The notes under the pieces were generated by a model. The model was not told the origin of the DNA and did no database searches. It worked only from the letters and a program-made list of their open reading frames with translations. The position numbers and the translations under genes were made by a program. From Nitrososphaeraceae archaeon (GTDB lineage: Archaea > Thermoproteota > Nitrososphaeria > Nitrososphaerales > Nitrososphaeraceae): 64,000 bases of DNA. Location: positions 1 through 64,000 of the forward strand of contig DATGZA010000063.1 of the NCBI GenBank assembly GCA_035297365.1, in the 5' to 3' direction. This document shows positions 240 to 25,240 of the stretch, piece by piece (the first letter of the stretch is position 1; each line of letters begins with the position of its first letter).

Positions 240-284
240 TAAATTGACTAATATTTTAAAAATATGTAATATGATAATTAAAAA

Positions 285-363
285 ATAAATCTTAAATATT
301 ATTCATGATACTGTAACATTGGACTCTTATTTTTGTACTGCTATCGGTGTTACTGCCGACGGG
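285..363 (+). repeat. Dispersed repeat copy 1 (TATA-like upstream part, core and ~47-bp arm)
   Basis: taaatcttaaatattat...ctg taacat tggactcttatttttgtactgctatcggtgttactgccgacgg; the arm aligns ungapped with copies 2-6. Confidence 0.85.
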
Positions 364-434
364 TAGGTTATGTATTGGGCTTACTATACAAGTATAGACA
401 ATAAATTATAGAGAAAAAAGGAGACTAAAGGAAA

Positions 435-960
435 ACGACATATAATCTATCTACAACAATCAATAATATTGAAAGAGATGTTCTTAATAGAGAAAATAAA
501 CAATTATTATTGAAATTCTATGAGTTTATGAAAAGATTATTATTGAAATTCTATGAGTTTATGAAAAGAATTGGAATCGCTGAAAGATATCAAAATAATA
601 GCCTGGAAGCAATCATAGCCTATAGTAAATCTCGTGGACCATTAATTTCCTTTTATCAAATTAAAGAAATAAGTAAAATATCTTCTTATTTGGATACAAA
701 AATAAAAACTATTGAGGAAGATTCAGATAAACATTGGATTACAACCTGGAATGATCAAGTTGTATGAATCAAATATTTTTTCAGATGGATGTATAACTGT
801 AAGGATAAAGATATTGACGATGTTCCATTTTCAGATTGATAAACACCTGAATTTGTAAGAATAAAGAAGAAAAGTAAAAGGATTAATCCATATCTTGAAA
901 ACGAATTGAAGAGTAAGGATTTATGTTATTTTGACTTTTGAAAATAGTATTGGCATTAAG
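435..960 (+). pseudogene. Truncated tyrosine recombinase/integrase-like pseudogene (N-terminal part only)
   Basis: One frame reads LSTTINNIE...FYEFMKRIG..YQNNSLEAIIAYSK...LDTKIKTIEEDSDKHWITTWND*IKYFFRWMYN...SD**TPEFVRIKKKSKRINPYLENEL, resembling Nitrososphaeraceae integrase N-termini as I recall them; stops at 765, 837 and 840, ACG at the likely start position, no catalytic domain. Confidence 0.65.
504..569 (+). repeat. Perfect 2 x 33-bp in-frame tandem duplication
   Basis: ttattattgaaattctatgagtttatgaaaaga at 504-536 and 537-569 (LLLKFYEFMKR twice). Confidence 0.95.
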
Positions 961-1221
961 AGAATTGTTCTGATTTTTTAAAGGATTTTATCGAATCTGA
1001 ATACAAGTTACTATATAATGTAACAGATTAATATATATAAATATGAAACGTATTAGAGAATTTAGTAAATCTCCAGTATCTATAAACAATTCTTAGTATT
1101 CTCATCCCATTTATGTATCTATTACGGTATATCAATCCCTATAAAAATGAAAGAAAAGGAATTATTCTTTCACTCTTAGCGAAATAGTTAAATTAAATAA
1201 TTACCTGATTTAATTAAGGCT

Positions 1222-2172
1222 TTGGGAGAAGATAAAGATGAAGAAAATGAAAGTCATAAAAAAGATGTTAGTTATAATACCAAACTTAAAAATGAAGACA
1301 TAGAAGAAGAAAGATCAATCGATATAGAGAATAATCATGATGAGGAAAACACCAAAGAAAAAATAATAGAAAAAATGACTGATAGAAATAATAATAATAC
1401 ACATAGCAAAACAGACACGTACACTAATAGTAATACATTATCATCTATTGAAAATAGAATTATTTATGATTTACAAACATTACTATCACAAAGACAAGAA
1501 AGGCTTTGGAGTGTTTTACATGAGCGTTATCAATACAATACATCAATAAAGAGAGGACAAGACTTTCTTCTCAATCACGTTGATTCTAAACTTTCTCTTG
1601 CGGTAATGTATGCTGATTTAGTAGGTTCAACAAAGATGAGTATGGTTTTACCAGTCGAAAAAATGGCAAAAATAATCAAAGCCTTTTCTCATGAATTGTC
1701 TTCCGTTGTTGAAAGTTATAATGGATTTGTATTAAAGTACGTAGGAGATGCAGTTATTGCGTTCTTTCCAAGTGGCTATAACAAGTATCTGTCTTGTGAC
1801 ACTGCATTCCAATGTGCTAAATCAATGATTAATGTAATAGAAAATGGTATTAATCCAATTTTAGAAAAAGATAAAGATAATTATCCAAAATTAGCTGTTA
1901 AAATAGCAATAGATGAGGGAGAGAATTTAGCTATACAATATGGATATGATAAAAGCGCACCTATTGATCTGATAGGATATCCTATGAATGTAGCAGCAGA
2001 GATGGAGGAATCCCTGACAGGACCAAACAAAATTTCTGTTGGAAATAATGTATATAAATTGCTACATCCTACAATAGTATCAGAATTTCAAGAAATACAG
2101 ATAAAAGAAACAGAATGGAAATATATTGATCTGGAAACTAATTCGCTATACAAAGTTTATACAACGAAATAA
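1222..2172 (+). CDS. Class III adenylate/guanylate cyclase domain protein with acidic low-complexity N-terminus
   Basis: Metal-binding motifs YADLVGST and KYVGDAV, plus DLIGYPMN. Confidence 0.85.
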   Translation: MGEDKDEENESHKKDVSYNTKLKNEDIEEERSIDIENNHDEENTKEKIIEKMTDRNNNNTHSKTDTYTNSNTLSSIENRIIYDLQTLLSQRQERLWSVLHERYQYNTSIKRGQDFLLNHVDSKLSLAVMYADLVGSTKMSMVLPVEKMAKIIKAFSHELSSVVESYNGFVLKYVGDAVIAFFPSGYNKYLSCDTAFQCAKSMINVIENGINPILEKDKDNYPKLAVKIAIDEGENLAIQYGYDKSAPIDLIGYPMNVAAEMEESLTGPNKISVGNNVYKLLHPTIVSEFQEIQIKETEWKYIDLETNSLYKVYTTK

Positions 2173-2384
2173 CATTTGTCTGTATGGGAACTTTATAAAA
2201 TTTATATGCAAGATATTCTGTTAGAGGATTTTACTGTAATTTCAATTATAGCTGTTATTACTTAAAATAAAAAGTCAATTTGTCCTAAATTACTACACAC
2301 ACCAATATTAAGTAATATATTAAATTAAAAGTTTTGAAAATGCTCAAATTTGTATTGATTATTATTATTCATAATAATAATCTA

Positions 2385-3030
2385 AGATTATAAAAAACGT
2401 TGAAACAAAACAGTAAAAAAAGAAAATTTAAAAAATGATACCAAAAATAAAAAGAAATAAGTATTAAAAAAATTAAATCTTCTAATTTAAATTCTAAAAA
2501 TATTTTGAATAAACCTAAACCTAAAAAAAGCAATAAATTGAATTCAAAAACTAAAAAAGATATATTTTTAAAAAGATAAAGTGGAAGAGAAAAGAAATTT
2601 GATACAAATAAGCTAACTCAAACTGGAAGTAGGTCAGTGATTCCTTTCCAGTTTCAAGAGATGTAGTAAAATCAAGGACAAAGAAAATTAAAAAATAAGT
2701 TCAAAATAAATCGACTTCAATAACAAAGAAAAAGAACAACAACAATCTTCCATCGTAGCAACTAAAGAACAATAATTAAAAATTAATACAAAAAAAGAAC
2801 CAGAAGAAGTGATTGTGACTGCAAGTTAAATAAAAAATTTGGTAGAAGTAAAGGATAGAAATCAACAAGATCATAGCCCATCATTTTCTGGCAATACTAC
2901 TACCAGTACTATTATAGATGAAGAATCATGCATGAAAATAACACTTAGTTACAGGGAACCAGTAATGGATAAAGTTGCAGCAAATAAGAAAGTTCTCTAT
3001 GATCCCAGTAAACAAAAAGGAAGTTCTTGA
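2385..3030 (+). pseudogene. Degraded paralogue of the Lys-rich ATP-cone gene at 13866-14501
   Basis: Clear nucleotide similarity (aaaaatgataccaaaaa, gtggaagaga, gtaggtcag, caagatcatagccca, gaaccagtaatggat) with stops and frameshifts; ORF 2839-3030 is its C-terminus. Confidence 0.85.
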
Positions 3031-3102
3031 CAATCTTCTTGTCTTTCTATATCTTTCATAATTTTTTAATCCAAAATTTCATTTCTTATTATATTATATA
3101 AC

Positions 3103-3179
3103 AAATAAGTTTGAATCATTCATAATACCACAACGTTAGACTCTTATTTTAACACAGTTATCGGTATTAATTTTGATGG
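3103..3179 (+). repeat. Dispersed repeat copy 2
   Basis: cca caacgt tagactcttattttaacacagttatcggtattaattttgatgg. Confidence 0.85.
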
Positions 3180-3306
3180 TGAATACTCATATGTTTGTAG
3201 TTATATCATTCGAACACATAAGGTATCTTAGTTATAGATTAAATACATTAAAAAAATACTAAAAAATATTTTTACAGGTATACTTATTTAATTTATGATG
3301 ATTGCG

Positions 3307-4119
3307 CTATTTTACATTTCTTAAAGCATTCGAAATATGGAATTTATTATACCAAAATAAAGCCCCTGACATTATAATAAAATCTGTTATATAGAATAGT
3401 TCCCAAAACCAGAGATTTTCTGAATTGCTTGCTACAAAATCATTAACATATCCATCATCCGCTATTGCATTCACTAATAATGACAATGAAGAAAGAAACC
3501 ACGGGATATTGTACTCATAATCTTTACGTAAGATTAAAAGTATTATTAAAGAAGGTATAATTAATATAAAGTCTAAAATAGGATACAAAAGGGTTACGAT
3601 GAGAGCTATAAAATCATTTTCAATGTTAGAATCATAAGAAAGAAGATTAACTAAATTATAACTAATAAAGAGAGTTGTAAAAATTGATGCCGCAATAACA
3701 ATTTTGGATTTTATTTTAATACATAATGAATGTAATATTATAAACAAATGTAGAGCAAGAAATCCATATCCAGCAAACCATAAAGCATCAGTAATAGTTA
3801 CAAGTCTTTGTTCTTCTATTCCCAATGCATAATAATCATATAAAAGTGTAAAATCAGCCGAAAACCAAAATATAAGACCAAGTGTAAGAAACAAATATGA
3901 TTTACCATGAAGTCCATGAAATCCATATCTACAGATAGCGATAATACCTAAAATCGAAGCAGTAGCTGCAGTTATATTTAATATGAAAAGAGAAACAAAA
4001 TGCTTACTATACGCTTCTGAAAATATTACATTAGCATTTGCAATTATTATAACTATTATCATTGAAAAAACATAATATTTTAGTGTTAATCTATGTGCAG
4101 TCTTTTCATTTGAAGGCAA
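3307..4119 (-). CDS. Polytopic membrane protein, hypothetical
   Basis: 270-aa ORF with about 8 hydrophobic segments. Confidence 0.75.
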   Translation of the reverse strand: MPSNEKTAHRLTLKYYVFSMIIVIIIANANVIFSEAYSKHFVSLFILNITAATASILGIIAICRYGFHGLHGKSYLFLTLGLIFWFSADFTLLYDYYALGIEEQRLVTITDALWFAGYGFLALHLFIILHSLCIKIKSKIVIAASIFTTLFISYNLVNLLSYDSNIENDFIALIVTLLYPILDFILIIPSLIILLILRKDYEYNIPWFLSSLSLLVNAIADDGYVNDFVASNSENLWFWELFYITDFIIMSGALFWYNKFHISNALRNVK

Positions 4120-4408
4120 AGTTTATTGACAATAACATAACATCTTTTAGATTTTTAAGGATTCGTCTCAATTAAATTGATAATTATGTAGTTATAAGTA
4201 AGTTATCGTCTAAAACCTCCACTCTTATCTTGAATGAAGAAAAAAGGCGATTTCAATTTCTTTGATAAAACAAATAAGTAAATTGTTATTAATATAAAAC
4301 CTAATAAAGAATATCTATTTTATATATATTTTAGTATAATTTTACCTAATTTTTACTTTTAATTATAGTTTATAAGTTACAAAAACTATACTAAATTTAG
4401 TTAATAAT

Positions 4409-4954
4409 ATGGCAAACTTAAATGATGAAAATAAGCAACAAAATAACAATATAAAAGAAGATAAAGAGAATTTTTTAGACAATCATAGAGAACTGTTAGA
4501 AAATATAACATTAAATATTCCAGATACAACAAATAAGCTTACTAGTACTATCAATGAATATCAAAATACAAATAATGACAGTCTTGAAAAAATTTTAGAT
4601 ACAGCAAACAAATATCAACAACAAAATATTAATACAATCCAATCAATCTCTAACAATTATGTAGAATTACAAAAGAATATTCTTATTACTTATCAATCAG
4701 TATTTTCTAAATTTATAAATAAATCTTATTGGAATAAATTTATTTATCCACTAGGATATACAGATGTTTATAATGATACCAACCAAAATATTACAGATAA
4801 TAAAATAAATGCTAAAAGAGGAATAAATGACTTTGTATTTGGTTATACAGAAACCGTTAACAAATGTATGGAAATTGCACAAAAAAACTATAATCATTCA
4901 GTTCAAAAATTCTTTAGCTTTGTAAATGAGATTCAAAAATCTTATAACTACTAA
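4409..4954 (+). CDS. Asn/Gln-rich helical hypothetical protein (phasin-like thaumarchaeal family)
   Basis: 181-aa ORF; INEYQ..INTIQSISNNYVELQKNI resembles IAEYQEQTIQTIKDIASDFIEAEKEV of 17168-17737. Confidence 0.6.
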   Translation: MANLNDENKQQNNNIKEDKENFLDNHRELLENITLNIPDTTNKLTSTINEYQNTNNDSLEKILDTANKYQQQNINTIQSISNNYVELQKNILITYQSVFSKFINKSYWNKFIYPLGYTDVYNDTNQNITDNKINAKRGINDFVFGYTETVNKCMEIAQKNYNHSVQKFFSFVNEIQKSYNY

Positions 4955-5015
4955 TTTTTATTTTTTTATTCTACCGTAAAAATTATTAGTTGTTTAATTT
5001 CGTGAGTAATACTAA

Positions 5016-6125
5016 ATGAAAAATTTTTCTTCAAAAGAAATAAGATTTTCTGGTGATTCAATAAAAAGTTGTGTAGTTTTTATTGATTTGGTAGATTCTA
5101 CTAAAAATACCATTACAATGGACAATTTAGAACATATTAGAATCTATTATTCTAAATTTATGAATTCAATATCAAAAATAGTTAAAAATTATGGTGGGAA
5201 AGTTATCAAAAATATTGGTGATTGTTTATTATTATATTTTCCAAAAGTATCTGATAATAAAAACGAAAACGCTTTTAGAGAAGTTATTGAATGTGGCCTG
5301 AAAATCTTAGATTCCCGCTATGCTGTTAATCAAGAATTGTCCAAGCACCATCTTCCACCATTCAGCTATAAAATTAGTATGGATTTTGGTGTTTTAGATT
5401 TAGCTTTAGTTGGTGATTATAGTCAGATAGATTTATTCGGGTCAACTGTAAACCGTTGTTCAAAGATAAATTCATCGCTGTCTATTTCAAATCAAATAAT
5501 TATTGGAGATAATTTTTATAGAATTTTAAAATCGTTTTCTAATATTGCTAACAATTATAATTTTATAAATAATGGTGAATGTAAGATAACCGAAACAATT
5601 GGATACCCTACATATAGTATAAAAAAAGTAAATAATTTATCTCTTGATGAAGGTAATACTACATACTTTCTGAGGAAGAAAATGTCAGGTTCCTATACTG
5701 ACAATTTTACAGTAGCTAAAAGTGATAAAGATCTGTTTTTTCCTAAAAGAAACAATACCAAAAGAATAATTTTAGTCGATGATGACCCAGATGTACTTTT
5801 TACCTATGAATCATTTTTAAAGGATAATGATTATGAAATAATTTCTTTTACAGATCCTTCCAAGGCATTGAATTTTATTAAAGATCTTCCAAATTTTAAT
5901 GATTTACTAGTAACACTCGATATCCGAATGAAAGATTTGAATGGATTCCAATTACAACAGCAAATAAAATCAATAGACCCAACAATCAAAATTCTTTTTA
6001 TAACTGTTTTAGATATATCAGATGAAATATTAACCGTAGTTCCAGGTTTATCCAAGGAACAAATATTGATAAAACCCGTTGATAGAAAGATATTAATAAG
6101 TACTGTTAAAAAATTGTTAAAGTAG
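5016..6125 (+). CDS. Class III nucleotidyl cyclase fused to a C-terminal receiver (REC) domain
   Basis: FIDLVDST, KNIGDCL and DLFGSTVN; REC motifs ILVDDDPD, LDIRM and IKP. Confidence 0.88.
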   Translation: MKNFSSKEIRFSGDSIKSCVVFIDLVDSTKNTITMDNLEHIRIYYSKFMNSISKIVKNYGGKVIKNIGDCLLLYFPKVSDNKNENAFREVIECGLKILDSRYAVNQELSKHHLPPFSYKISMDFGVLDLALVGDYSQIDLFGSTVNRCSKINSSLSISNQIIIGDNFYRILKSFSNIANNYNFINNGECKITETIGYPTYSIKKVNNLSLDEGNTTYFLRKKMSGSYTDNFTVAKSDKDLFFPKRNNTKRIILVDDDPDVLFTYESFLKDNDYEIISFTDPSKALNFIKDLPNFNDLLVTLDIRMKDLNGFQLQQQIKSIDPTIKILFITVLDISDEILTVVPGLSKEQILIKPVDRKILISTVKKLLK

Positions 6126-6156
6126 TAAAATTCAACTTTATTATTATTAAGATTTA

Positions 6157-6230
6157 AAGTAAATCATAAATAATATCCCTTTGTACTATAACATTAGACT
6201 CATATTTTTGCACCGCTATCGGTATTTATT
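6157..6230 (+). repeat. Dispersed repeat copy 3
   Basis: aagtaaatcataaataatat...cta taacat tagactcatatttttgcaccgctatcggtat. Confidence 0.85.
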
Positions 6231-6335
6231 TCTATAAACTAAAACTTTCCAATTCTGTAAATGCTGCTATAATTGAGCAATTCTATGAATTGCAAAAAAG
6301 CAAATATATATACAAAACAATAAGAACTTAGGTAT

Positions 6336-6572
6336 ATGCCCAAGTTCCTTGATGTTCACTCTTTGAAAGGATTTGATGAAGAGACTTTAAGAAAATTGCA
6401 ACAGTCTCCTGTAGATGAATTCGGAATTACACATATTAACATAATGTATAACAAAGAAGAAGACAAGTTCTTTTGCCTTCTTGACGCACCCAATAGAGAA
6501 GCAGTAGAAAATCATCATCATAAACACGGCGTCAAGTGTGAATGGATAACAGAAGTGAAAACTACCTCTTAA
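6336..6572 (+). CDS. DUF4242 / SCO4226-like small metal-binding protein
   Basis: MPKFLDVH...FCLLDAPNREAVENHH..HG..CEWITEV pattern. Confidence 0.8.
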   Translation: MPKFLDVHSLKGFDEETLRKLQQSPVDEFGITHINIMYNKEEDKFFCLLDAPNREAVENHHHKHGVKCEWITEVKTTS

Positions 6573-6819
6573 GGTACTATAGATTCTATCACTTTAATTA
6601 AATATTTGATAAATAATATTAGCAAAATAAAAGCAACTAACAATTAGGTTATTTTATCTTTTTTCGAGTTCATAAATTATAATTCTCGCGTTATCTTCCA
6701 CCTAATCTAATATAGGTTCGAATTATCTAATTTTACTATTTTTGTCTCATTACAGAAATGATAATTTACACGTTCGTAATATATCTATATAATATTAAAT
6801 AATTTTAAAGAATAAGTAT

Positions 6820-6902
6820 CTAATACTAGAAGCTAACTATAAGTTAGTAGTATATTCACATTAGATTCTTATTTTAGAACCGCTTTAGGTATTTCTCCGG
6901 AC
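6820..6902 (+). repeat. Dispersed repeat copy 4, with an alternative upstream arm shared with 8031-8074
   Basis: ctaatactagaagctaactataagtt...tcacat tagattcttattttagaaccgctttaggtatttctccggac. Confidence 0.8.
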
Positions 6903-7046
6903 TCAATTGCATGACTTCTATACCTATAATTCTAGGAATAAAAAAGTCTCAATTACAAGAAGTTCCTTTTATCTATAGGTCCAGACTAAAAACCAAAAAA
7001 AGGAAATAGGAGAGACAAACAGAGAAAAGTTCATTAAATATAATCA

Positions 7047-7830
7047 ATGTGGCATTTATGTGGGAAAATTTTTACTGACAACAAGTTTTTTTACCTTGAT
7101 TTTAATTTTACTTCTGGTAACTCTGTCAATGTAATGTCAATTAGTGGAGGGAATTCTAATACTACTACATTTATAAATAATAATACAAATCTTGATATTT
7201 CTAATTTAGTTTACGAGATAGATTCCAAGCCTTTTAATGTTTCATATGTAGAGTGGACAGAGAAAATGGTGGCAATGGACATATTCTATTCCTTGGGATA
7301 AAAATCCCTCATACGATGATACTGGAAAATATTGCAGTGAAAATCAAAGTGGACCAGTTTGGTTTCTAACTTTAGCTTATAAACATGCAGTTACCCGCAC
7401 ATGTGATATTCCTGAAAATACAGCTTTGTTTATAACTCTATTAAATTCTGAATGCTCTTATGCAGAATTTCCGTTGTTAAAAACTGAAGAAGAACTAAGA
7501 GAATGCGCTAAACGTATCCAAGACCTTGTAGTTAGAGTAAATGCTTCACTTTATAAAGTACTTGTACCAAATTTAGAAAATTATCGTGTCCAGACTGATA
7601 TTTCCAATTTTACTTTACCCGAAAATAATATTTTGAATTTATCTTCTCAGACGACACAAGCTGTTGCAGATGGAAATTGGTTATTGCTTAAACCTCTCAA
7701 TCCTGGAATATATGAATTAAAAGCAAAAAGTGATATTAATGCAACTTCTACAATAGAGATTAATGGGAATAAATATAATGGTCCTGTTGGATGGAACTAT
7801 ACGACTAAATACATTTTAAATGTAAAATGA
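7047..7830 (+). pseudogene. Frameshifted conserved secreted-type hypothetical gene (two track ORFs form one gene)
   Basis: DSKPFNVSYVEWTE continues as KWWQWTYSIPWDKNPSYDDTGKYCSENQSGPVWFL after removing one A at ~7264-7267, and that frame joins ORF 7426-7830. Confidence 0.75.
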
Positions 7831-8030
7831 GCTAAAAATTAAAATAGAAATTGAAAGATCACATAAAAGGAGAAATCTCTATTATCTGATATAAACAACA
7901 TTAATAAAGCTATAAAATATTATCACATTCAGCCAGATTTGTATGTAAATAAATCATAATTCATACCAATATTACCCGCAGCAAATTATATATTCTGAGT
8001 CTTAGAACAATTTTAGAATAAGTTACATTA

Positions 8031-8074
8031 CTAATAATAAAAGCTAAATACAAGTTGTGTGAGGTCTACTACAT
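8031..8074 (+). repeat. Second copy of the alternative arm plus CTA-NNACAT core, lacking the downstream arm
   Basis: ctaataataaaagctaaatacaagtt matches 6820-6845 at 22/26 positions and is followed by gt cta ctacat. Confidence 0.55.
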
Positions 8075-8520
8075 CGACGATTCAACTGTCGACCTATTAC
8101 CCGAATATATAAATGAAACACTATCATGTTATGATGATGATCTCCATCAGGTAACAAAAGCTATAATCAAATAAATACGTTAATTTATTTTTATCATTAT
8201 CAAATTATTTTTTGTGTTAATTATTAATCAAATTCAAAGATGTGGTAAAGATATAAGATTATCTTTAAGAATGTAAATACAAGGTGTTAGAACCCTAATT
8301 CATAAGTTCTATTTGGAAAATGATTAACTTAATAACTCATCATAATAAACAAAATTTTACAATATCATATATTAAAAATAGAATATTATAGTGTATTTAA
8401 TTCTGTCTAATCATTCAGTATGGGAAGAATCTATGATTAAAGTAAATTGTCCAAATTCAATTGGTAAATCTATCGATATCATGATAAAAACTTTTATAGT
8501 ATATTTATTTTTCAATTAAC

Positions 8521-8937
8521 ATGAAAATTCTATCAATAATATCTTTGATTGTAGTATTCTCTTTGTCTTTATTCACTGTTATGAGTAATATGAGTACAGT
8601 ATTACAACATGTTAACGGACAAGATCTTGAAGAAAATACTGGTGAAAAATTGTATGTTTTACTATTTGAACAAAACAAGATAGGGAACATAGATAACTCT
8701 ACTAAAATTGTATCTGCTATCGTAGGTAATAATTTAATTAAAATTGAGGAAGAACTATTAGAAGAAATAAGTTTAACACCCTCTCAACAATTAAAAGAAC
8801 AGATGAGTGAGATAATTAGAAACGGTACGAGTGGATTATCTTGTAATGCTTCTCTGACTTCAGAGGATGGAGAGAATGTTGGAATAGATTGTATCTCGTC
8901 TGGAAAGTATATTATTTGGCATATCTATCCAAAATAA
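8521..8937 (+). CDS. Secreted hypothetical protein
   Basis: 138-aa ORF with a signal-peptide-like N-terminus and two Cys. Confidence 0.7.
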   Translation: MKILSIISLIVVFSLSLFTVMSNMSTVLQHVNGQDLEENTGEKLYVLLFEQNKIGNIDNSTKIVSAIVGNNLIKIEEELLEEISLTPSQQLKEQMSEIIRNGTSGLSCNASLTSEDGENVGIDCISSGKYIIWHIYPK

Positions 8938-8999
8938 TATACTATTTTTTGAATTATAAGGATTTACATTCTAAGAAGAGGATGAGGATTAATTGATAA

Positions 9000-10576: not shown

Positions 10577-11457
10577 TCTGGTCAATTTTAATTATTTAAT
10601 TTTGTCGTGTCATTTTATCATTAAAGTTCTTTCTATAGTATTTTGTGTAGGGAAGAATAGTATGCGAATATTCTAATTAAAAGTACAAAATAGCAAAGGT
10701 GATTTTATCAACATTGTTAAATTACTAATTTTTTCTTTCAATAAATTGGAAACTGGGAATAAGCACAGGCTGATTTGTATATTCACAAGATAAAACAAGG
10801 ATAGGGATTATTATTTTCTCTCTAGTATATAAAAATCATATATTTTATTATTTGTCTATGATAACTAATAATCATTATTAATGTAAAATATAAATGCTGT
10901 GAAAATTGTATGCGCAAAGCGATGAGCTTTATCCTTCATTATAGTATAATGAACGTCTTGATGAAGAATGTAACATAACTTTTGATTTTAGTTTTTTGTA
11001 GGTACAATTTTATAATTATTTAGTGAAATCTTGATATTTAGTTTTGTAATATATAATGCATTATATTGAAATTGAAGGTTAATATCCATACATACTGCTT
11101 ATAGTATTATTATTTTTTAATTTGTTAGATATTATTAGTTGCGCAAACTTCTTTTTCTTCTTTTTATTTAAATTAATTAGTCTATTCGTGTAGCAATATT
11201 TTGTTATAATTCTATATCTTACATAGATCAATTTCTGTGCAATTTAAATAAAACGTATAGTTTTAGACAGAGGATTGTTTAGAAATTTTCATATAATATC
11301 ACAGAAACCAATTGTACTTTCTTAATATGTACGTATATTTCAACAACGACTTCTTATTTTACACAAATATAAGAAACATAACTGATGTTTTAAATATTTC
11401 TTTATTATTACTTCATCCCTGCCTTTTCTCCATTATAAAGGCAATTTGTAATACAAT

Positions 11458-11544
11458 AAGTAAATTTAAATATTATTGATATTGTGACTATTACATTAGA
11501 CTCTGATTTTTGTACCTGTATAAATATTACCATCGTCGGCTAGG
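11458..11544 (+). repeat. Dispersed repeat copy 5
   Basis: aagtaaatttaaatattat...cta ttacat tagactctgatttttgtacctgtataaatattaccatcgtcggctagg. Confidence 0.8.
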
Positions 11545-11588
11545 GGCCACTAATTTTCTAGACTAACACTATTTTACAAATTCAATCA

Positions 11589-14501: not shown

Positions 14502-14537
14502 AAATCTTCTTTGCCTTTCTATAGCTTTTTTTAATTT

Positions 14538-16870: not shown

Positions 16871-17167
16871 TCTTTAAATTTGCAATATATCTTATCTACT
16901 AATTTATTTATTGATATTTCATAGAAACCTAAATACAGTGTAGTAAAATTCTACCCTAAGACGTCATTCCTGAAAGATAGTATTACCAAAAAATGACATA
17001 TAATTATCTAATTTTCATAATTCTTCTTAATAAAAATACTTCTTAATTTGCTTATAAAATAGAATAGAATAAATATTACTAATAGTACGATTTAAAAAAT
17101 AGTAAAGATTATTAGACTGTGTTAGATATTTAACATTCCATTTTTACTTACTGGTATTATTTCTAAT

Positions 17168-17737
17168 TCATTGTGTATTGACTGATTGTCCTACTGATTT
17201 TATGTAACTAGCATTTGTTCTTACCAAAGTCTTTAGATTCTCACGTGTTTGTTCTAGTGCTGTATTGTATACCCTCATATTTGACGCTAGAGTGTTATTT
17301 ATGAGATTACTCGTGTTTAATAGATAACTTGTGAAGTTATTCACCAATACTGCATGATTTTCAACAATTTTCTGTGGGTTATACAAGTCCCATAATCCCA
17401 TGGAGTTTACACCACTTTTTCTATCTACCTGTGATTGAAAAGAGTTTATTACTTCTTTTTCTGCTTCAATGAAGTCAGAGGCAATATCTTTTATAGTTTG
17501 AATAGTTTGTTCTTGATATTCAGCAATACGTTGTGTGTATTTTGGAATTTCTCGCGTAGCTTCATCAGTGGTTCTCTTTATATTATGTAAGGTGTTGTCG
17601 AGTGTCTTGCTTATTATATCTTGTTGTTGATTTAAGGTGTTATTGTAGTCTCTACTTGTTCTTTCATTGAAATTATTGTTGTCTGGACTAAATTTAGTTG
17701 TATTTTTTTCATTTATCTTTTCTTCTTTTGCTGACAT
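17168..17737 (-). CDS. Asn/Gln-rich helical hypothetical protein (phasin-like thaumarchaeal family)
   Basis: 189-aa ORF containing EATREIPKYTQRIAEYQEQTIQ; similar to 4409-4954. Confidence 0.65.
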   Translation of the reverse strand: MSAKEEKINEKNTTKFSPDNNNFNERTSRDYNNTLNQQQDIISKTLDNTLHNIKRTTDEATREIPKYTQRIAEYQEQTIQTIKDIASDFIEAEKEVINSFQSQVDRKSGVNSMGLWDLYNPQKIVENHAVLVNNFTSYLLNTSNLINNTLASNMRVYNTALEQTRENLKTLVRTNASYIKSVGQSVNTQ

Positions 17738-17887
17738 AATTATACATAAGTTACCTAGATATATAAACTAATGTACTAGTATCTAGTGTATAATCACATT
17801 CTTTAAGTACACTTTTTTTTATTGTTTAAATTTTCCAACAATTGGAAACTTTTTATTTGTAATTCTAAGATATCTTTGGCATTATTT

Positions 17888-18424
17888 TCATTTTTGAGTA
17901 TTCTTCTTCTTTAATGATGAAAAGATTTTGATACGTTTTGAGATTATATTTATTGCTAAATAGGATATAGAAGAAGCAGTTATAGAAGATATTATAGCTG
18001 CTTCAAAAGGTCTCAATCCTGTTAATAATAATTCAAATAATATTATCCATCGTGATATATTGTTAACAATGTCAAATATAGACCAAGCAAACACCATCTT
18101 CTTTATTATTTGTTTTAGAATATTGAAATTAATCTGCCTAGTAAATTTATCGGTGTATTTTTGTTTGTTGTCGATATGAAAAAGAACTATAAAAATGACC
18201 TTGTATATTATAAATCCAACCAATACTGTTACTGTGGAAGTTAATACATTATTAGGAGAATAAATCGCATATAGTTCAGCTATAACAGCACTAGATAAAA
18301 ATCCAAATGTGCCAGCAATAAGTAAATCCTTATTCATTAAAATAGTTTCTCTATATTTCTTGTAAAAGTTAGTAGTAAGTCTGTTGAAAATTCTATTATT
18401 CCTTGTATTATTTTTTTTACCCAA
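17888..18424 (-). CDS. Four-TM membrane protein (GtrA-like), hypothetical
   Basis: 178-aa ORF with four hydrophobic segments. Confidence 0.65.
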   Translation of the reverse strand: MGKKNNTRNNRIFNRLTTNFYKKYRETILMNKDLLIAGTFGFLSSAVIAELYAIYSPNNVLTSTVTVLVGFIIYKVIFIVLFHIDNKQKYTDKFTRQINFNILKQIIKKMVFAWSIFDIVNNISRWIILFELLLTGLRPFEAAIISSITASSISYLAINIISKRIKIFSSLKKKNTQK

Positions 18425-18801
18425 ATAACAATTATCTAAATATACACACCCCTTTATGTCTTTAAAGATCTGATTTAGCTAAATGAGAAGGTGGTTAGTA
18501 ATTTATATCAAACAGCTACAACAATAATAAGATCAAAGTTAACTACAATGACATTTACTTCCTAATCATCCATTTCAATCTTTTAAAAAAAATTGTTTGC
18601 ATATTTGTATAATGTGGTTGCTTCACAATCCACCTTCTAAATGTTGTGATAATTTATTCATTTTTGTATAGAATCTATTTTTCATTTAAAAATTGTTATT
18701 TTAAGATTCATTTTGTCTAGCTTATTGAATCTTATAATACCAATTTTTATAACTTATATTATTACATATACAGCTTGTCATATTTTTGAAAATAGAATAC
18801 C

Positions 18802-18881
18802 GAGTAAACTTAATTATTATCTCATTTTACTAATACATTAGACTCTTATTTTCACATTGCTATAGGTGTTACTCCCGACGG
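18802..18881 (+). repeat. Dispersed repeat copy 6
   Basis: gagtaaacttaattattat...cta atacat tagactcttattttcacattgctataggtgttactcccgacgg. Confidence 0.85.
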
Positions 18882-19303
18882 CGCAGCCCAGTTTTCTAGG
18901 GTTCACTATTTGATATTGAAGTAAGGAAATCAATCAATCAATCTTATTATTTTAATATCATAATTAGATAAAAAAACGAATGTCTGTTCTGATTCGGTTA
19001 ATTATATAGATTTGATCAATTTACCATTTAGTAAATAAAAAATCGTGTAAGCTTGCAAATTAGTCCAAATTTCTAAATTCTGTTCTTATTTTGATATAGA
19101 TTTAACTTTGGTTACAAATTTTCTACTCTTTACCTGTTTTGAAACAGAGCAAAGAATTTCACAATAAGTAACATCCACACCTTCAGCGAAGCACAAAATT
19201 TAAGTCTAGCTTATTTGGATCCTCAGCTAATTATATTTTGATAATTTTTGATGCATTTTGAGCAGTTTCTTCAGATACACAATCAATATTTTCAACATCA
19301 AAT

Positions 19304-20023
19304 GGCTCTGTTCAGATAAGCAGCAAAAGCTATAGCTGAGAACGTTCTAAATATACTATGAAAATTTGAAAGAAATAAAACATCTTCTTTTATTGTAATG
19401 TATTCTCTTTATCTATACTTTCTTGGTCTCAGTTTAAGAAATACTTCCAAGGCATTAACTATATTTAGAGATCGGAAGAGAAGTTATGTTTCTGTTTGGA
19501 ATTGGATTCAGAGATTTGGATCCTGTCAGATCTATAAGACAGAAAGAATTTCTGCATTCATAATAGATGAAACTATAATTCAGATTGGTAGTCAACATTT
19601 CCGGTTGTGGATCTGTATTGAACCAGTACATAGTTCTGTACTTGGAATCTATCTCTCAGAGGAGAGAAACATGATGGTTGCTGAAAATGAAAAATTTATT
19701 AGGTCTCTGGTATCAAGGTATGGAAAACATACTGTGTATACAGATAGAGGTACATTGTATGAGGAAGCATGTAACGTAATTGGATTAAAACATTATCTAC
19801 ATTCTTCAATAGAGAAAAGTCCAATGGAACGGGTCAACTAGTTTTTGAAAGACAGAATAGAAAATTTTGATGACTATTATCCGTGTATCCAAGAAGAATG
19901 TAATCTATTTCACGTACATAACTGGATACAATTCTTTGTTTCGATGTATAATGATACTATAGCAAATAATAACAATAATTATTTTCAGTTAGAGGAGATG
20001 ATTATTATCTTAAATTAAGAGCC
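19304..20023 (+). mobile_element. IS6-family insertion sequence (720 bp), defective
   Basis: Ends GGCTCT...AGAGCC; flanking 8-bp near-duplication catcaaat (19296-19303) and aatcaaat (20024-20031); internal DDE transposase. Confidence 0.88.
19358..20018 (+). pseudogene. IS6-family DDE transposase with nonsense codon and 5' frameshift
   Basis: [44 protein letters not shown]; TAG at 19839-19841 with the frame continuing. Confidence 0.88.
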
Positions 20024-20365
20024 AATCAAATCTCTCCTCTTCTGCAATTTCCTTAATCAAATCTTCCATTTCTTTTTGTTGCTTGCTTGTTTCCTCTTTC
20101 ATAGTTATTAATTCCCTTTCCTGTTCTACTTTTGACAATCCTTTTCGAATTAGTACTTCAGACTTTTGAGTGTGAAATTTTCAAGCCAATTGCTTTACCA
20201 ATTTTTTGCTCAATTTTTTTTATCATTTAGTTTTCATTGTAAATGTTACAATAAAGTTAATAAGTATTTTAACAACTGATGTAATAGTGATTATTAAAAT
20301 ATTTATCTAATATGTTTAATAGAATTTCTAAGCGAAGAATTCTCTTAAATATAATTTTTAATAAT

Positions 20366-20389
20366 AAAAATATGAGTCTAATGTTTAGG
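20366..20389 (-). repeat. Dispersed repeat copy 7 (inverted, truncated)
   Basis: Reverse complement acattagactcatattttt is identical over 19 nt to copy 3. Confidence 0.7.
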
Positions 20390-20680
20390 ACTTTATCCAC
20401 CATCTTATCAAAGAATATCCACCATAGATGAACCACCAAAATGATTTAAAATTACTATTAATTGTTGGTCCAGATAGTTTGCATTTTTAATATTTTTTAA
20501 AAAGTATTAATTGTAAAACTAGAGGCATCACAATTTCACGTTATACCAATACCTAGTTTAATTGTCCCTTGATATTTATACTAAATCCTGAAGTTATTAC
20601 AATAACCTATTATACTAAATGAATATTAAATATCTAGAATCTTGGCAATTTACTATATAGGATAAACAACTCTTATTAGT

Positions 20681-22264
20681 TTGTTATTTTATCAAAAAAC
20701 ATTGGTCGAACGCCTATCCACAGGTATAAGTGATCTTGATACACTCATTGAGGGTGGGATACCAAAAGGGTTTACGGTTTTATTAGCAGGTAATCCAGGT
20801 ACAGGTAAAACTATACTTGCATCTCACTTTCTTTATGAAGGCCTAACACTTAGGGAAAGTTCTGTATACGTTTCATTCAGTGAGTCTAAAACTCAATACT
20901 ACGATAATTTTGAGCGATTTGGAATGAATTTTATAGATTTTGAGAAAGATAATAAATTTGCATTCTTAGACTTTTCTGCTGTAACAAAGGAAGGTATAGC
21001 AGATGCACTAGAACAAATTATTGAAACTTGTAAAAGTATTGATTGTAAAAGATTAGTAATTGATTCCTTTTCTGTAATACAACTTGCTTTTGATAGTATT
21101 ATCGAGTCTAGAATTGCCTTGCAGGTTGTTTTAGGGAAGATGTTAAGAGCTGAAGGTGTAACAACTATACTGATAGTCGAGATTCCTTTTGGAAGCAAGA
21201 GCATAGGTTCAGGAATGGAGGAATTTGTGGCTGATGGTATTATACAAGTTGAACATGGTTTTACGGAGGCAGTTCCGCTTATTCTGAGGGTAATTAAAAT
21301 GAGGTCTACTTCGATAATTAGGGAACCTCATGTCTCTTTTATTAAAGAAAAAGGTATGGTAGTATATCCAAAACAACCACTAAAGATTAATCTCCCAGTT
21401 TCAACCGATAGGATTAGAACTGGGATTTCAGGTTTAGATGAAAGAACTCAGGGAGGACTTTTCAAGTATTCTACAACAGCATTGGTTGGTGCATCAGGTA
21501 CAGGTAAAACTACTTTTGGATTTCAGTTTGTTGCGGAGGGGGTTCTTGATGGTCAGATTGGCTTATTCTGTTCTCTTGAAGAATCGCCTGATGACATTAG
21601 AACTGGTGGTCAATCCATTGGTTACGATGTGAAGAACCTTGAGAAAAAAGGACTTCATATACTATCTTGGGTCCCAGAAAATCAGAGTCAGGATGCATTT
21701 ATTTCAGAATTAGCATCTAATATAGATACCATAAAACCATCACGTATAGTGGTAGATGGATTGTCGGCATTCAAATATTCATCTAATCAAGAAATCTATT
21801 TAATCGCAAAAAGGCTATGTAATCTATTTCGGAGTAAAGAAATCACTTCTGTAATAACCATTCTACAACCCCAGCAGCCAGGTATTAATGTAACTTCACT
21901 TGGTTTATCGTCTATTTTTCACAATATCATTGTTCTCCGATATTTCGAGGTAGAATCACAAATAAAGCGCTCGTTATTGATACTGAAAATGAGATCTTCC
22001 AATCACGACCAGTCAATCATAGAATTTTTGATTGTCAGTGATCGAGGAATGAAAATAATAGGTCCAATGAAAAAATATATAGGTATTATGAGTGGTATTG
22101 CTCAGAAAACCTATCAACGATCTACTGATAGGGAACAAAAGATAAAATTTAATGAGAATATGGAGAGGCGAAAAAGAAAGCAAAAACTTCCAATACATCT
22201 GAAAGAAATAGGCAAGAAAGAAAAAAATATGAAAAATAAACGTAGGAAAACAATTTACAAATGA
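20681..22264 (+). CDS. Double-domain KaiC/RAD55-family ATPase
   Basis: Walker A motifs GNPGTGKT and GASGTGKT, Walker B motifs LVIDS and IVVDG, KMR fingers in both halves. Confidence 0.92.
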   Translation: MLFYQKTLVERLSTGISDLDTLIEGGIPKGFTVLLAGNPGTGKTILASHFLYEGLTLRESSVYVSFSESKTQYYDNFERFGMNFIDFEKDNKFAFLDFSAVTKEGIADALEQIIETCKSIDCKRLVIDSFSVIQLAFDSIIESRIALQVVLGKMLRAEGVTTILIVEIPFGSKSIGSGMEEFVADGIIQVEHGFTEAVPLILRVIKMRSTSIIREPHVSFIKEKGMVVYPKQPLKINLPVSTDRIRTGISGLDERTQGGLFKYSTTALVGASGTGKTTFGFQFVAEGVLDGQIGLFCSLEESPDDIRTGGQSIGYDVKNLEKKGLHILSWVPENQSQDAFISELASNIDTIKPSRIVVDGLSAFKYSSNQEIYLIAKRLCNLFRSKEITSVITILQPQQPGINVTSLGLSSIFHNIIVLRYFEVESQIKRSLLILKMRSSNHDQSIIEFLIVSDRGMKIIGPMKKYIGIMSGIAQKTYQRSTDREQKIKFNENMERRKRKQKLPIHLKEIGKKEKNMKNKRRKTIYK

Positions 22265-22356
22265 TAATATTAACAAGAACAAGAAATAAAGTTTCAATAT
22301 TCTCAATAACTTCGACTGCTAATGAATCTAACTTAAATAATAGTGATTTATGACTC

Positions 22357-22695
22357 ATGTCTAAAAATATTTCCTTTGAAGAAGTTTATGCAGAATCTGT
22401 AGATAATGCGATAAAAATATTGGGGGATATTGTTTCAAAAATCGTAACTGATTATTTAACACATAAATACTCTATTGATATTACCAAAACAGCTAATAAA
22501 CCGCATATACTTGACGAAGCATTAAACCATGTAATAGATGGTGGCAAATTAATTATTGAAAGAAGGATAATAAACATTCTTTATAAAAAAATAGGATTGT
22601 TAGAGAATCTTTCAAGTACAGATATTGTCTCATTCGAAGAACGTATAAATGAAGCTCGAGAGAGATATAACAAACTTCTAAAGAGAAACTTATAA
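22357..22695 (+). CDS. Small KaiC-associated-type hypothetical protein (DUF3227-like)
   Basis: 112-aa ORF directly after the KaiC-like gene; VDNAIKILG...L..V...GK.IIERRI...LYKKIG pattern. Confidence 0.6.
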   Translation: MSKNISFEEVYAESVDNAIKILGDIVSKIVTDYLTHKYSIDITKTANKPHILDEALNHVIDGGKLIIERRIINILYKKIGLLENLSSTDIVSFEERINEARERYNKLLKRNL

Positions 22696-22777
22696 TTTTT
22701 GGTTAGTTACATTTATCTTATTTATACATACTAACTGTTGTCCAAATTAGAGAAATTATCATTTTTTACTCAATTGG

Positions 22778-24172
22778 TTAGACCAATGGCAATAAAAAGC
22801 CAAATTCTGCCCCTTGGCCTATATCTTTAGGTTTATTCCTACCCCATATTTTGCCACCATGTTCTTCAATAATCTTCTTTGATATGTATAAACCAAGTCC
22901 AGTTCCACCCTCATATTTGGAAGTACTAGTAAATTTTGTAAATAGTTTTGGCAATATTTCAGGATCGATTCCCTTACCATTATCCTGTATAGTTACTGAT
23001 ATTTTGTCGTCATTATCAGATTCTTGTTTTCTTATTTTGATATTAATGTTACCATTTTCTGTAAATCTATTTGAATTATTTAATAAATTATATAAAACTT
23101 GTTGTATTCTATCTCTATCAGCATTTACAAATAATTGTTTTCCTTTTTTTTCTATTTTATTGTTATCATTTATTTTGTCCTTGTAATGGATGTGGTGATC
23201 ATAATCATTGTAAGATAGTAATAATTTAAAATCGTTATTATTATTTTTGGACTCATTGATGAAATCTGTCAGTGTTTCATTTACTAATTGAATAATATCA
23301 AAATTTCTCTTGTCTAAATTTAGATTATCACTTTCTATTTTGGCAATATAAAAAAGGTCTTCTGTCAATCTGTAAAGTCTGTTTAAATTTCTATCTAATG
23401 GTTCAAGATATTTTGGAAGGTTATGTGGAAAATTCTTTATCATTTCAATATATCCTAAAATTGACTGAGTAGGGGTTCTAAGTTCGTGAGCTGCCATGTT
23501 GAAGAACTCTATTTGTTTATTCTTTTGTATTTCAATCTCTTTATTGGCTGATTGAAGATTCTTATTTGTTTTAGCAAGAGCCTCGAATGATATGCGCAAG
23601 TCAGAATAGAGATCAATTAATTCTTCATTTTTTCTTTCTAGTTGCAAATTCTTTTCTTGTATGTGTTGATGTAAATCTGTTTGATGCCAGAGTAAATTAA
23701 ATATGTAATGATAAGAAGAAACGATATAGCTTCTAGTAGTAAGGATTGCAGAATCAATATTTTGAGAAAAGTTATTACTAATATTATCTTTTAATATGAC
23801 TATGAATACTAAACTTCTATCAACCACAAAGAATGAGGCAGCAGAAGAAGTTGGAATTCCTTCTATTACTTTAACTTCTATACTCTTGTTATATTTATTG
23901 TCTATTTCTGGATTAATTGATTTATTAGACTCAGTTTTTTGGATTAACACTTGAACTCTAATGCTCTTTTTAAGAGATCTTAATATTTCGAATATTCCGC
24001 TTCTCTTATAAGAAATTGTATTACTATTGTGATAGATCCAATGTATTTCACCGGCAGCTGACTTCAGAATTTCTATGTGTTTTTTCAAAACAACATTAGA
24101 ATCATGTATGACTTTTAGATCTTCAACTCCTAGATGATCTGATCCACCATCATACATTGATATCTCATACAA
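22778..24172 (-). CDS. Cytoplasmic sensor histidine kinase
   Basis: H-box AAHELRTP, N-box NLLNNSNRFT, G1 DNGKGI and G2 GTGLGL. Confidence 0.93.
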   Translation of the reverse strand: MYEISMYDGGSDHLGVEDLKVIHDSNVVLKKHIEILKSAAGEIHWIYHNSNTISYKRSGIFEILRSLKKSIRVQVLIQKTESNKSINPEIDNKYNKSIEVKVIEGIPTSSAASFFVVDRSLVFIVILKDNISNNFSQNIDSAILTTRSYIVSSYHYIFNLLWHQTDLHQHIQEKNLQLERKNEELIDLYSDLRISFEALAKTNKNLQSANKEIEIQKNKQIEFFNMAAHELRTPTQSILGYIEMIKNFPHNLPKYLEPLDRNLNRLYRLTEDLFYIAKIESDNLNLDKRNFDIIQLVNETLTDFINESKNNNNDFKLLLSYNDYDHHIHYKDKINDNNKIEKKGKQLFVNADRDRIQQVLYNLLNNSNRFTENGNINIKIRKQESDNDDKISVTIQDNGKGIDPEILPKLFTKFTSTSKYEGGTGLGLYISKKIIEEHGGKIWGRNKPKDIGQGAEFGFLLPLV

Positions 24173-24412
24173 TCAATATCGAACCTGAATATATATAGTA
24201 TTTCCTAAGATTTTTGTATCTGAATTTATGGATTATTTTATTATTCATCCTTAAACTTGGATCCAGTGTTGATATATTTTATCAGGTGAATGAGTATAAC
24301 TTTCTATAAGAATAAGATCATTCAAACATTCATTTATTCATCCTTTGGTTATGATCATATAGTTATAATATGTATTAGCCCACCAAAGCATATTTTTATT
24401 TTTTACTTTGTA

Positions 24413-24871
24413 TTATCCTTTATTTTTCATATTTTTATTCATATGTTTTTCATTCCAATGGTTTATAAAATATTCAATTAAAGGTTCAAAATCACTTCTT
24501 GTTACATCTTCTTTTATATTTTTATTCTTTGAAATACTTGAAAATTTACGTGCGTACTGTATACACGTCCAGCATCCAACAAGCGGAATTAAAAATGCTA
24601 AATAATATCCAGTATATCTTCCTGAAAATTTCCACGCTTCACCTACAACACAATACTTTGAATCCCGCTCCATCATGAATTTATCCACTCTATCCAATCC
24701 TAAAGATAGTTTTTTAGACCAAATTGGGCATAATTCATTAAATGTAATGTTTTTAGTCACCGTGTCTTTTGATGACTCCAAATGCTTATTCTCTTCAAAA
24801 TCAGCATTATTCTTATCATTACTGCTACATTGAGGAAAATGAATATTAGATGTACTAACCCTGATCATCAT
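24413..24871 (-). CDS. Cys/His-containing hypothetical protein
   Basis: ELCPIW, YCVVGEAW, CWTC and HWNEKH suggest a metal-binding family. Confidence 0.7.
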   Translation of the reverse strand: MMIRVSTSNIHFPQCSSNDKNNADFEENKHLESSKDTVTKNITFNELCPIWSKKLSLGLDRVDKFMMERDSKYCVVGEAWKFSGRYTGYYLAFLIPLVGCWTCIQYARKFSSISKNKNIKEDVTRSDFEPLIEYFINHWNEKHMNKNMKNKG

Positions 24872-25167
24872 AGTGTATATACGAAAACATACATATAATG
24901 ATTTATTATACCGACAGTTTAGCTTTTCTTTCTTGTTCTTCTTATTAGTTCTTAAGCATTACTAGATGTGTACAAACAAACAAAAACTAAATCAATTAAC
25001 TATTACATAGTAATAACAGAATTAAAGACACTGTAATACACAAAAAAAGGAAATGAAGTAATAATGATTTCTAAATCACGTTAAACAGACAGACTAATAC
25101 GAATGAGTTTAATAGACAAAATGAGAAAATAAAACTTCTTTTTATTTATTATATATGATTAAATATA

Positions 25168-25240
25168 AAAATAATTTTAAATATTATCTTCTTAATTACT
25201 AAAACATTCTACTGTTATTTTGCATCGCTATGGGCATAAA
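25168..25240 (+). repeat. Dispersed repeat copy 8 (degenerate)
   Basis: aaataattttaaatattat...cta aaacat tctactgttattttgcatcgctatgggcat; one gap relative to copy 3. Confidence 0.55.

Follow-up and report, generated by a model that had tools for sequence, protein, structure and literature searches.

The first 64,000 nucleotides (nt) of contig DATGZA010000063.1 in the Nitrososphaeraceae archaeon assembly GCA_035297365.1, hereafter the window, carry a family of co-oriented intergenic repeats in their first 25.8 kb. Our analysis indicates that integrative elements targeting the 3' end of the gene for tRNA-Lys(UUU) very probably left each repeat behind as a junction of site-specific recombination. 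The repeats share a core with this tRNA, integrase genes adjoin the tRNA and a number of the cores, the arms on the two sides of the core are exchanged combinatorially, one insertion polymorphism breaks at the core, and neighbouring copies are locally co-oriented. Because identity with the tRNA, adjacency of integrases, exchange of arms and a break at the core come together, we regard the repeats as attachment (att) junctions. The genome under study, G000, comprises 2.52 Mb in 110 contigs; the window belongs to its contig C63, and genomes of relatives are denoted G0xx.

To describe the repeat unit, 31 copies from G000 were aligned with 86 distinct copies from relatives. The unit spans about -75 to about +80 relative to a conserved ACAT and includes an element-borne P arm of ~110 nt, whose distal left part exists in two unrelated forms, P1 (AAGTAAATCTTAAATATTAT) and P2 (AAGTTTCTAATAATAAAAGCTAAATACAAGGTAGTAG). 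The proximal part of the B-type arm consists of ACATTAGAC plus TCTTATTTTTGCACCGCTATCGGTATT, the latter being the best conserved stretch of the unit. A sister left arm, Y, has P2, a hairpin and the proximal part GTAGTAGAACCCTACTAC ATGGACGATTCT, and it is followed by the ACTCC and the right arms that B units also have. Beyond the ACTCC that follows the left arm, the right arms vary and are of type A (CGACGGGCCCGTAGTTTTCTCGGGTTCA), A' (..GTTATGTATTCGGGTTCATATAC), B (CTCCTTGGAATATTTCA) or C (CGACCAGCTTGCTGAAAATG..), or are replaced by unrelated sequence.

The sequence ACTCCCGACGGGCCCG, which in the consensus lies 37-52 nt past ACAT and follows GGTATT, equals the last 16 nt of tRNA-Lys(UUU). In G000, this tRNA gene contains an intron and is located on the 2.4-kb contig C64; the G014 copy is called Lys(ttt) by ARAGORN, which leaves the other copies open owing to the intron. 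When 172 distinct right arms were compared with the 3'-terminal 32 nt of tRNA-Lys on C64, 37 had at least 10 nt in common with it and 20 had all 16 nt, and the other 22 of the 23 tRNAs examined gave one match only, of 11 nt to a tRNA-Val. A sequence-only reading of the window had placed the crossover at a CTA-NNACAT-TAG dyad on the left edge of the repeat. This dyad is indeed exact in copies 3, 5 and 6, but it is poorly conserved overall, with CTA as the majority letters in just 15-17 of the 31 genome copies, and the tRNA-identical core together with recurrent breaks of homology 37-52 nt downstream speaks for a different position. The exact crossover probably lies within or next to ACTCC. The idea that the P arm is a diverged tRNA half was discarded, since 1719 of 2000 shuffles aligned equally well or better.

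Integrases beside the tRNA gene and the cores

Adjacency of integrases was judged in the three genomes with a long enough flank. An open reading frame (ORF) with an integrase-type N-terminus begins 61 nt past tRNA-Lys in G000, a 448-aa ORF ~70 nt past it in G017, and another integrase ORF 51 nt past it in G014, and the right arms at the tRNA are different in all three. In G018 the common A arm follows tRNA-Lys and the contig ends 125 nt past the tRNA, and in G012 the contig ends at tRNA-Lys. The 448-aa protein of G017 matches PHROG_1 'integrase' (8.8e-11) and contains DARPHEL, IRHSAIT and GTRYIKR, which fit the R, HxxR and Y boxes of tyrosine recombinases.

Beside tRNA-Lys of G017 lies arm A', and copy 1 of the window is followed by this arm and by the same type of integrase. 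The right arm of this first junction matches both the tRNA-Lys flank in G017 and a junction at G017:C8:291.6 kb, where B arm, core and A' precede a second intact A'-type integrase (80% identical). In the window, the integrase remnant corresponds to residues 2-152 of its 448-aa relative, with 64% identity over 162 aa in tblastn and 69-71% in the genome search; it has two TGA and one TAA internal stop codons, and its catalytic part is gone. The core of copy 1 ends at 367 and the remnant starts at 438, which agrees with the distance of ~70 bp reported before. Taking all sequences together, a core with at most four mismatches lies 48-71 nt ahead of 7 of 11 distinct integrase N-termini. Three of these cores are at tRNA-Lys, two behind a B arm (window copy 1 and G017:C8:291.6 kb), one behind a Y arm and one at an apparent other tRNA. 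The integrases adjoin the tRNA or a junction and are oriented as the array is, and they presumably catalyse the reaction. The proposed tie between the repeats and tyrosine integrases is thus borne out by genes that begin 48-71 nt beyond the core, both beside the tRNA and behind a number of junctions, copy 1 among them. The notion of a single integrase-bearing element is not supported, as tRNA-Lys serves as target for three or more integrase types in the genus, with three different P' arms.

Two further integrases of G017 that are 63% identical adjoin a tRNA-Arg(TCG) identified by ARAGORN and a tRNA-like sequence not called by this program, and their arms resemble A'. The P' arms of three related G017 integrases contain a partial T-arm copy of their own target tRNA just before ATATAC (GGGTTCATATAC, GGGCTCATATAC and GGGAATTCATATAC), which might serve as an extra binding site. 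On C64 of G000, the frame through the att core ends in TGATG and overlaps the integrase start codon, and in Y arms a leaderless-looking ATG opens a frame through the core (M-D/E-D/G-S-T-P-D-G-P...). The length of the small ORF through the core is not kept in other copies. We rejected a coding reading of the core, which has no three-base periodicity of conservation and in-frame ORFs that are mostly shorter than 30 aa, with one of 91 aa.

Arm exchange and breakpoints at the core

In four genomes of the genus, tRNA-Lys borders on a different right arm each time, and every one of the four arms also occurs behind B or Y left arms. B arms are joined to A (29 joints), to A' (5), to the intA flank (1) and to the intC flank (2); for Y arms the counts are 10 joints with A, two with the intA flank and one with the intC flank. 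Hybrid sites of the attL, attR and attP-like kinds around a single crossover region would be expected to give such combinations. As judged from these sequences, a junction would be composed of the P arm, the tRNA-derived core and the sequence that had stood to the right in the partner site.

We searched 198 of the 217 junction calls for cases in which both flanks recur at another spacing. One Y junction on C99 of G000 corresponds to two Y junctions in G017 that flank an insert of 5.56 kb. The flanks, which are ~93% (left) and ~96% (right) identical, lie 5.73 kb apart in G017; homology on the left runs through the Y arm to ..TCC, and on the right it begins with CGACCAATTG directly after ACTCC. 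The insert begins with the arm that flanks tRNA-Lys in G000, i.e., an integrase-type P' arm. This comparison of an occupied with an unoccupied site concerns an older junction and not the tRNA. At the left junction of the insert (G017:C8:23.4 kb), the 18-nt core region has the consensus length and differs from it at ~12 positions, mostly by changes from G/C to A/T. A second candidate polymorphism, the junction at G017:C8:258.5 kb compared with window 14554/16241, gave no clean boundary.

Other homologies between junctions also have defined ends. C58 and C99 share a 470-nt module (96% identity) whose end falls exactly at ACTCCCGA of a Y junction, and upstream homologies between G000 copies stop at +37 to +39 in two independent pairs. 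Such a stop is seen for junction 3 of the window and copies on C58. Both flanks of junction 2 are kept in G017, where they are 92-96% identical and have equal spacing. In G005 the ZIP and ORF152 modules are permuted relative to G000. Whether breaks of synteny fall at the NNACAT spacer had been named as a check; a break at a defined site does occur, in the insertion polymorphism, but it falls at the tRNA core instead of the spacer.

These features suggest how the repeats may have formed. A tyrosine integrase would be encoded ~50-70 nt past the core on the element's P' arm, and a circular attP, in the order P arm, core, P' arm and int, would recombine with the tRNA 3' end or with any older junction that bears a core. 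Every insertion would restore the target and add one co-oriented junction, so that a stacked array would build up downstream of the tRNA. Later decay, probably combined with integrase-mediated deletions to secondary sites, would strip the array of integrases and cores. Secondary-site recombination, including deletion of the integrase-proximal part of the next element, could leave P arms that pass into unrelated sequence immediately behind GGTATTA(CTCC). The remainder would be P arms joined to blocks of unrelated accessory genes with a median length of ~2 kb, and window 1-25.8 kb would represent such an array, truncated by the contig start.

The P arm may in addition carry a promoter that reads across attP toward int. 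TATA-like hexamers peak at -30/-29 from the ATG in 687 long ORFs, and from the TATA-like box of the P arm, transcription of B arms would begin at the A/G of TAGAC and that of Y arms at the ATG. Integration would part int from its presumed P-arm promoter. A junction promoter that drives the cargo was rejected because there is no orientation bias downstream: among the nearest downstream ORFs, 13 are co-oriented and 11 opposite, and 7 junctions have none. Upstream, the nearest ORF shares the orientation of the junction in 21 of 28 cases (p=0.0125), and the blocks carry genes on both strands.

Contig sets from two soil metatranscriptomes, compared with window positions 1-20000, cover ORFs at 1232-1644, 4581-5962, 6384-6660 and 17181-17475. 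None of the listed pieces lies on a junction; as contigs cannot reveal a small RNA, this is uninformative either way. By far the highest contig depth in both runs (456 and 27.7; bin 17343-18009) was found for a 189-aa ORF at 17168-17737 on the - strand, which belongs to no clear Pfam family.

Arrays in the window and across the genus

A profile search of the whole assembly detected 31 copies in G000 at E<1e-4. Contig C63 has seven of them, C20 eight, C58 six, C14, C23 and C99 two each, and four contigs one each, and within each contig all copies lie on one strand. Spacing and orientation were analysed for a set of 74 junctions from G000 and 110 kb of G017, in which 58 of 61 neighbouring pairs less than 20 kb apart are co-oriented. 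The median distance between junctions is 2005 nt (interquartile range 977-3195), and units as short as ~97-140 nt between cores recur. As had been proposed, the sites divide the region into modules, with att-type junctions bounding the blocks. In G017, tRNA-Lys (C8:2734-2821, + strand) is followed by the integrase, a RadA-like gene, an ApeA/HEPN gene and a type I restriction system. Thirteen co-oriented junctions then lie at 21.8-43.7 kb of C8, i.e., 19-41 kb past tRNA-Lys, on the same strand as the tRNA.

With a covariance model, each of the 24 other genomes examined in the genus gave 8-79 matches, as against 0 in 16 genomes from 16 other families of the order. In a draw of genomes from the family, many matches were present in 7 of 7 genomes of the genus; three other genera had 1-2 matches each, in 3 of 6, 1 of 7 and 1 of 7 genomes, and fourteen genera had none. 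The exact core pattern occurs in 44 stretches, all of them titled as metagenome-assembled genomes (MAGs) of Nitrososphaeraceae or Nitrososphaerales, and viral contigs gave 0 exact matches to the 32-nt core pattern. Among the covariance-model matches, P arms are equally alike between species and within one genome.

In the window, repeat, pattern and profile searches recovered the complete family of eight that had been described, i.e., seven direct copies and an inverted 19-nt fragment, and the ORF map shows all copies to be intergenic. Copies 1-6 align without gaps on the + strand, at 287-351, 3104-3168, 6162-6226, 6829-6893, 11464-11528 and 18806-18870. A 19-nt pattern, allowing up to two mismatches, matches the + strand at 315, 3132, 6190, 6857, 11492 and 18834, and its seven matches in total compare with 0.01 expected from 100 shuffles. 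Some details of the first description need correction: copy 2 reads ACGT where ACAT had been reported at 3133, and the inverted copy exists but lies one base from the position given for it. Copy 7 is present as well; it is more decayed than the other copies, and its alignment requires a 1-nt gap. Two Y junctions, at ~8021-8094 and ~25669-25738, had escaped the first description, as had the full extent of the unit and the copies on other contigs. Profile scans for B and Y units found no B copy or Y junction past 25.8 kb on the window contig, in agreement with the earlier remark that the core half of the window is free of copies. The features are collected in Table 1. The last Y junction sits 320 nt ahead of a ZIP transporter gene.

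Table 1. Junctions and associated features in the first 25.8 kb of the window (positions refer to the window).
Feature	Position	Strand	Composition	Basis
Junction 1, B type	268..397	+	P arm at 268-351 and decayed core ACTGCCGACGGGTAGG at 352-367; A'-type P' arm precedes integrase remnant	profile and covariance-model matches
Integrase pseudogene	438..920	+		tblastn and genome search
Junction 2, B type, decayed	3098..3194	+	core region AATTTTGATGG	profile and covariance-model matches
Junction 3, B type	6143..6272	+	P arm intact to GGTATT, then unrelated sequence, without tRNA core	profile and covariance-model matches
Junction 4, B type with P2 distal arm	6810..6942	+		profile and covariance-model matches
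Y junction (sister type)	~8021..8094	+	P2 distal arm, hairpin GTAG..CTAC, ATCGACGATTCAACTGT, decayed core, C-like arm	Y-profile E=2.5e-9
Junction 5, B type	11446..11583	+	core partly decayed, A-like arm	profile and covariance-model matches
Junction 6, B type	18794..18922	+	core ACTCCCGACGG, then A-type arm with hairpin	profile and covariance-model matches
IS6/IS240-like element	19294..20028	+	broken DDE transposase gene (in-frame stop)	Pfam DDE_Tnp_IS240
Inverted 19-nt P-arm fragment (remnant)	20367..20385	-		exact match to 19-nt pattern
Junction 7, B type, strongly decayed	25159..25254	+		nhmmer profile E=1e-12
Last array junction, Y type	~25669..25738	+	decayed core GCTCCTGGCGGACCAG	Y-profile E=3.4e-5

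The segments at 2319-3092 and 13800-14573 are paralogous (75% identical) and represent a 211-aa ORF (13866-14501) and its decayed copy. Segment 2319-3092 ends exactly at the start of junction 2, and a homologue of the gene end of the 211-aa ORF also precedes a junction in G017. Outside the array, positions 30441-30584 consist of two tandem 72-nt units that are 88% identical. Positions 40983-41589 and 46892-47507 in the core half of the window, which are 5.9 kb apart and 70-75% identical, probably represent paralogous genes. A 107-nt tRNA, probably with an intron, lies at 53508-53614 on the - strand; it scores 42.3 bits in Rfam and was not called by ARAGORN.

Weighing the alternatives

Several observations weigh against the reading of the repeats as att junctions of elements that target tRNA-Lys. 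Neither a circular or excised form nor a clean empty attB was found among the sequences examined, and only 1 of the 31 B-type junctions in G000 is shown to have an integrase start behind its core. A recognisable arm or a full core is missing from 68 of 116 B-type junctions. G017 contains more arrays far from its single tRNA-Lys, in both orientations, and its integrase scores 20.2 bits against Pfam Phage_integrase, under the curated cut-off of 27.1. The closest relative searched, G014, which is ~94% identical nearby, is without window 16046-24301 (carrying endonuclease V, junction 6, the insertion sequence (IS), KaiC and a histidine kinase) and without 24964-25863 (carrying junction 7 and the Y junction at 25669-25738), and its breaks are off the junction cores. 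One strain variant is without 10231-14972, again with a break not at junctions. Finally, arm-specific binding alone does not explain a near-identical P arm behind different integrase types.

Integron-like gene capture elaborates the reading as att junctions and does not exclude it. Integrase-less cassettes, with P arm and core as their own site, would be moved in trans by a few integrases to the tRNA-Lys end or to older junctions. The close spacing of the 74 junctions agrees with this proposal, as do the recurrent ~97-140-nt units and the small number of integrases. The 470-nt module of C58 and C99 is found in different neighbourhoods, ZIP and ORF152 are permuted, and the P arm is kept throughout the genus. 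However, single-strand folds of four copies, calculated for both strands, did not surpass those of shuffles (z +0.07 to +1.5), and RNAalifold placed 0 consensus pairs in 27 copies, so an attC-like fold is lacking. Genes on both strands within blocks and co-orientation of the downstream ORF in just 13 of 24 cases do not fit either. Moreover, the sole insertion seen, of 5.6 kb, has an integrase-type P' arm, and ordinary integrative elements followed by decay and deletion would look alike. We consider gene capture of this kind rather unlikely. Just as tentative is its extension to a capture platform of soil ammonia-oxidising archaea with cassettes of 0.1-7 kb, lambda-type att sites in place of attC hairpins and a junction promoter that would turn int on only in the circle. 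In the strict sense, the term 'integron-like' used by the sequence-only reading does not apply, given the missing fold, the position of integrases on incoming elements beside the core and the orientation of downstream ORFs.

Alternatively, the junctions could be old scars, site-specific in origin, with present shuffling due to RecA/RadA-type exchange between ~100-nt repeats. Numerous cores are decayed or gone, intact integrases are few in G000, and homologous exchange also predicts breaks at repeat edges. Yet the tRNA and the P arms swap right arms with just 16 nt in common, and the likeness of P arms between species and the intact integrases beside intact cores in G017 argue for current activity. 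We hold this explanation to be improbable.

Still less probable are small-RNA genes or promoter-leader units whose function is unrelated to recombination. Such units would account for a TATA-like box at a fixed distance, for two promoter-like distal arms joined at the same place and for the sole structure that we detected, a short A-arm hairpin with compensatory changes that is followed by T-rich sequence. They would leave the tRNA identity, the adjacency of integrases and the exchange of arms unexplained, and downstream genes show no orientation bias. The repeat has no conserved secondary structure, and a search of the window with Rfam 15 raised only three tRNAs to the gathering score and no repeat copy; at copy 6, no family reached the gathering score even with E-values up to 10 included.

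That the repeats are IS ends or miniature inverted-repeat transposable elements, as might be thought from the DDE transposase pseudogene bracketed by copy 6 and the inverted 19-nt fragment, is hardly credible: homology to ~40 other, mostly broken copies of the IS on other contigs spans only 19299-20024, well inside the repeat pair, and an uninterrupted paralogue of the target exists at C3:14228-14726, so that copy 6 and the inverted fragment are not the ends of this separate insertion, IS copies lie mostly on repeat-free contigs, and repeat copies have neither terminal inverted repeats nor target duplications, which disposes of the origin from IS terminal repeats that had been named as a possible refutation.

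Significance and relation to known systems

The repeat provides a sequence tag for variable islands across an uncultured genus of soil Nitrososphaeraceae, with matches in all 24 other genomes. It marks sites of entry and shuffling of accessory genes, among them cyclases, KaiC, a histidine kinase, restriction-modification and HEPN defence genes. The repeat may also help to explain breaks in assemblies, as the contigs of two relatives end at tRNA-Lys or 125 nt past it. Such an integrase, whose chromosomal target is a defined stretch of 16 nt in a conserved tRNA, might be developed into a tool for site-specific integration; we know of no genetic system for ammonia-oxidising archaea. If the cassette reading were true, the system would represent a second, independent route to gene-cassette arrays.

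The P arm, core and P' arm recall the complex attP of the lambda type, in which P and P' arms surround a short core and the integrase gene lies beside one arm. Both systems have a long conserved arm on one side, the integrase beside the other arm and a short identity with the chromosomal site. In contrast to lambda, the P arm here resembles an archaeal promoter aimed across the core, and arm-type binding sites are putative only. Streptococcal cis-mobilizable elements (CIMEs), which are integrase-less, att-flanked elements that accrete beside integrative and conjugative elements, share with the present arrays the site-specific accretion at one target and the att-flanked modules without an integrase of their own. 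CIMEs are bacterial, however, form few modules per locus and are unrelated in sequence.

Integrons in archaeal MAGs use attC and IntI, according to the part of PMC9668308 consulted, in the text of which Thaumarchaeota, Nitrososphaer- and tRNA have 0 occurrences. They resemble the arrays described here in co-orientation, short modules, a repeated recombination site and many arrays without a nearby integrase. Unlike in integrons, there is no attC hairpin, and the site consists of a tRNA-derived core and a sequence-conserved arm. Integrases travel with the elements, and the modules are not single promoterless ORFs.

'Suicidal' integrases of the SSV type integrate into tRNA genes in hyperthermophilic archaea (sections of PMC7253208 and PMC8371274). 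Targeting of a tRNA gene is common to both systems, and in both, integration may switch off the integrase. In the SSV type, attP lies inside the ORF and the gene is split, whereas the 448-aa integrase ORF remains whole here, with the core 71 nt ahead of its start; at most the presumed P-arm promoter would be separated from the integrase.

The closest parallel is found in integrated elements of Thaumarchaeota. Their att sites have a median length of 17 bp and lie mostly within the 3' portion of tRNA genes, some of which contain introns, and re-use of sites leads to arrays, as stated in PMC6563490. Att sites as short as 8 bp, 3'-distal tRNA targets, loss of integrase genes and tandem integration are likewise on record for this group (excerpts of PMC6563490 and PMC8371274). 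The junctions described here agree with these elements in their short core (17 bp median there, 16-17 nt here), the tRNA 3' target, arrays by re-use and a cargo that includes defence and accessory genes. They differ from these elements in the dozens of junctions per genome (8-79 matches) at ~2-kb spacing, in that most blocks are integrase-less, in a ~110-nt P arm common to different integrases, and in the use of older junctions, besides the tRNA, as sites of insertion. A full-text literature search, with supplementary tables outside its reach, found no account of this repeat or of arrays this dense. The kind of mechanism is already known from these systems; what is unusual here is the scale and density of the junctions.

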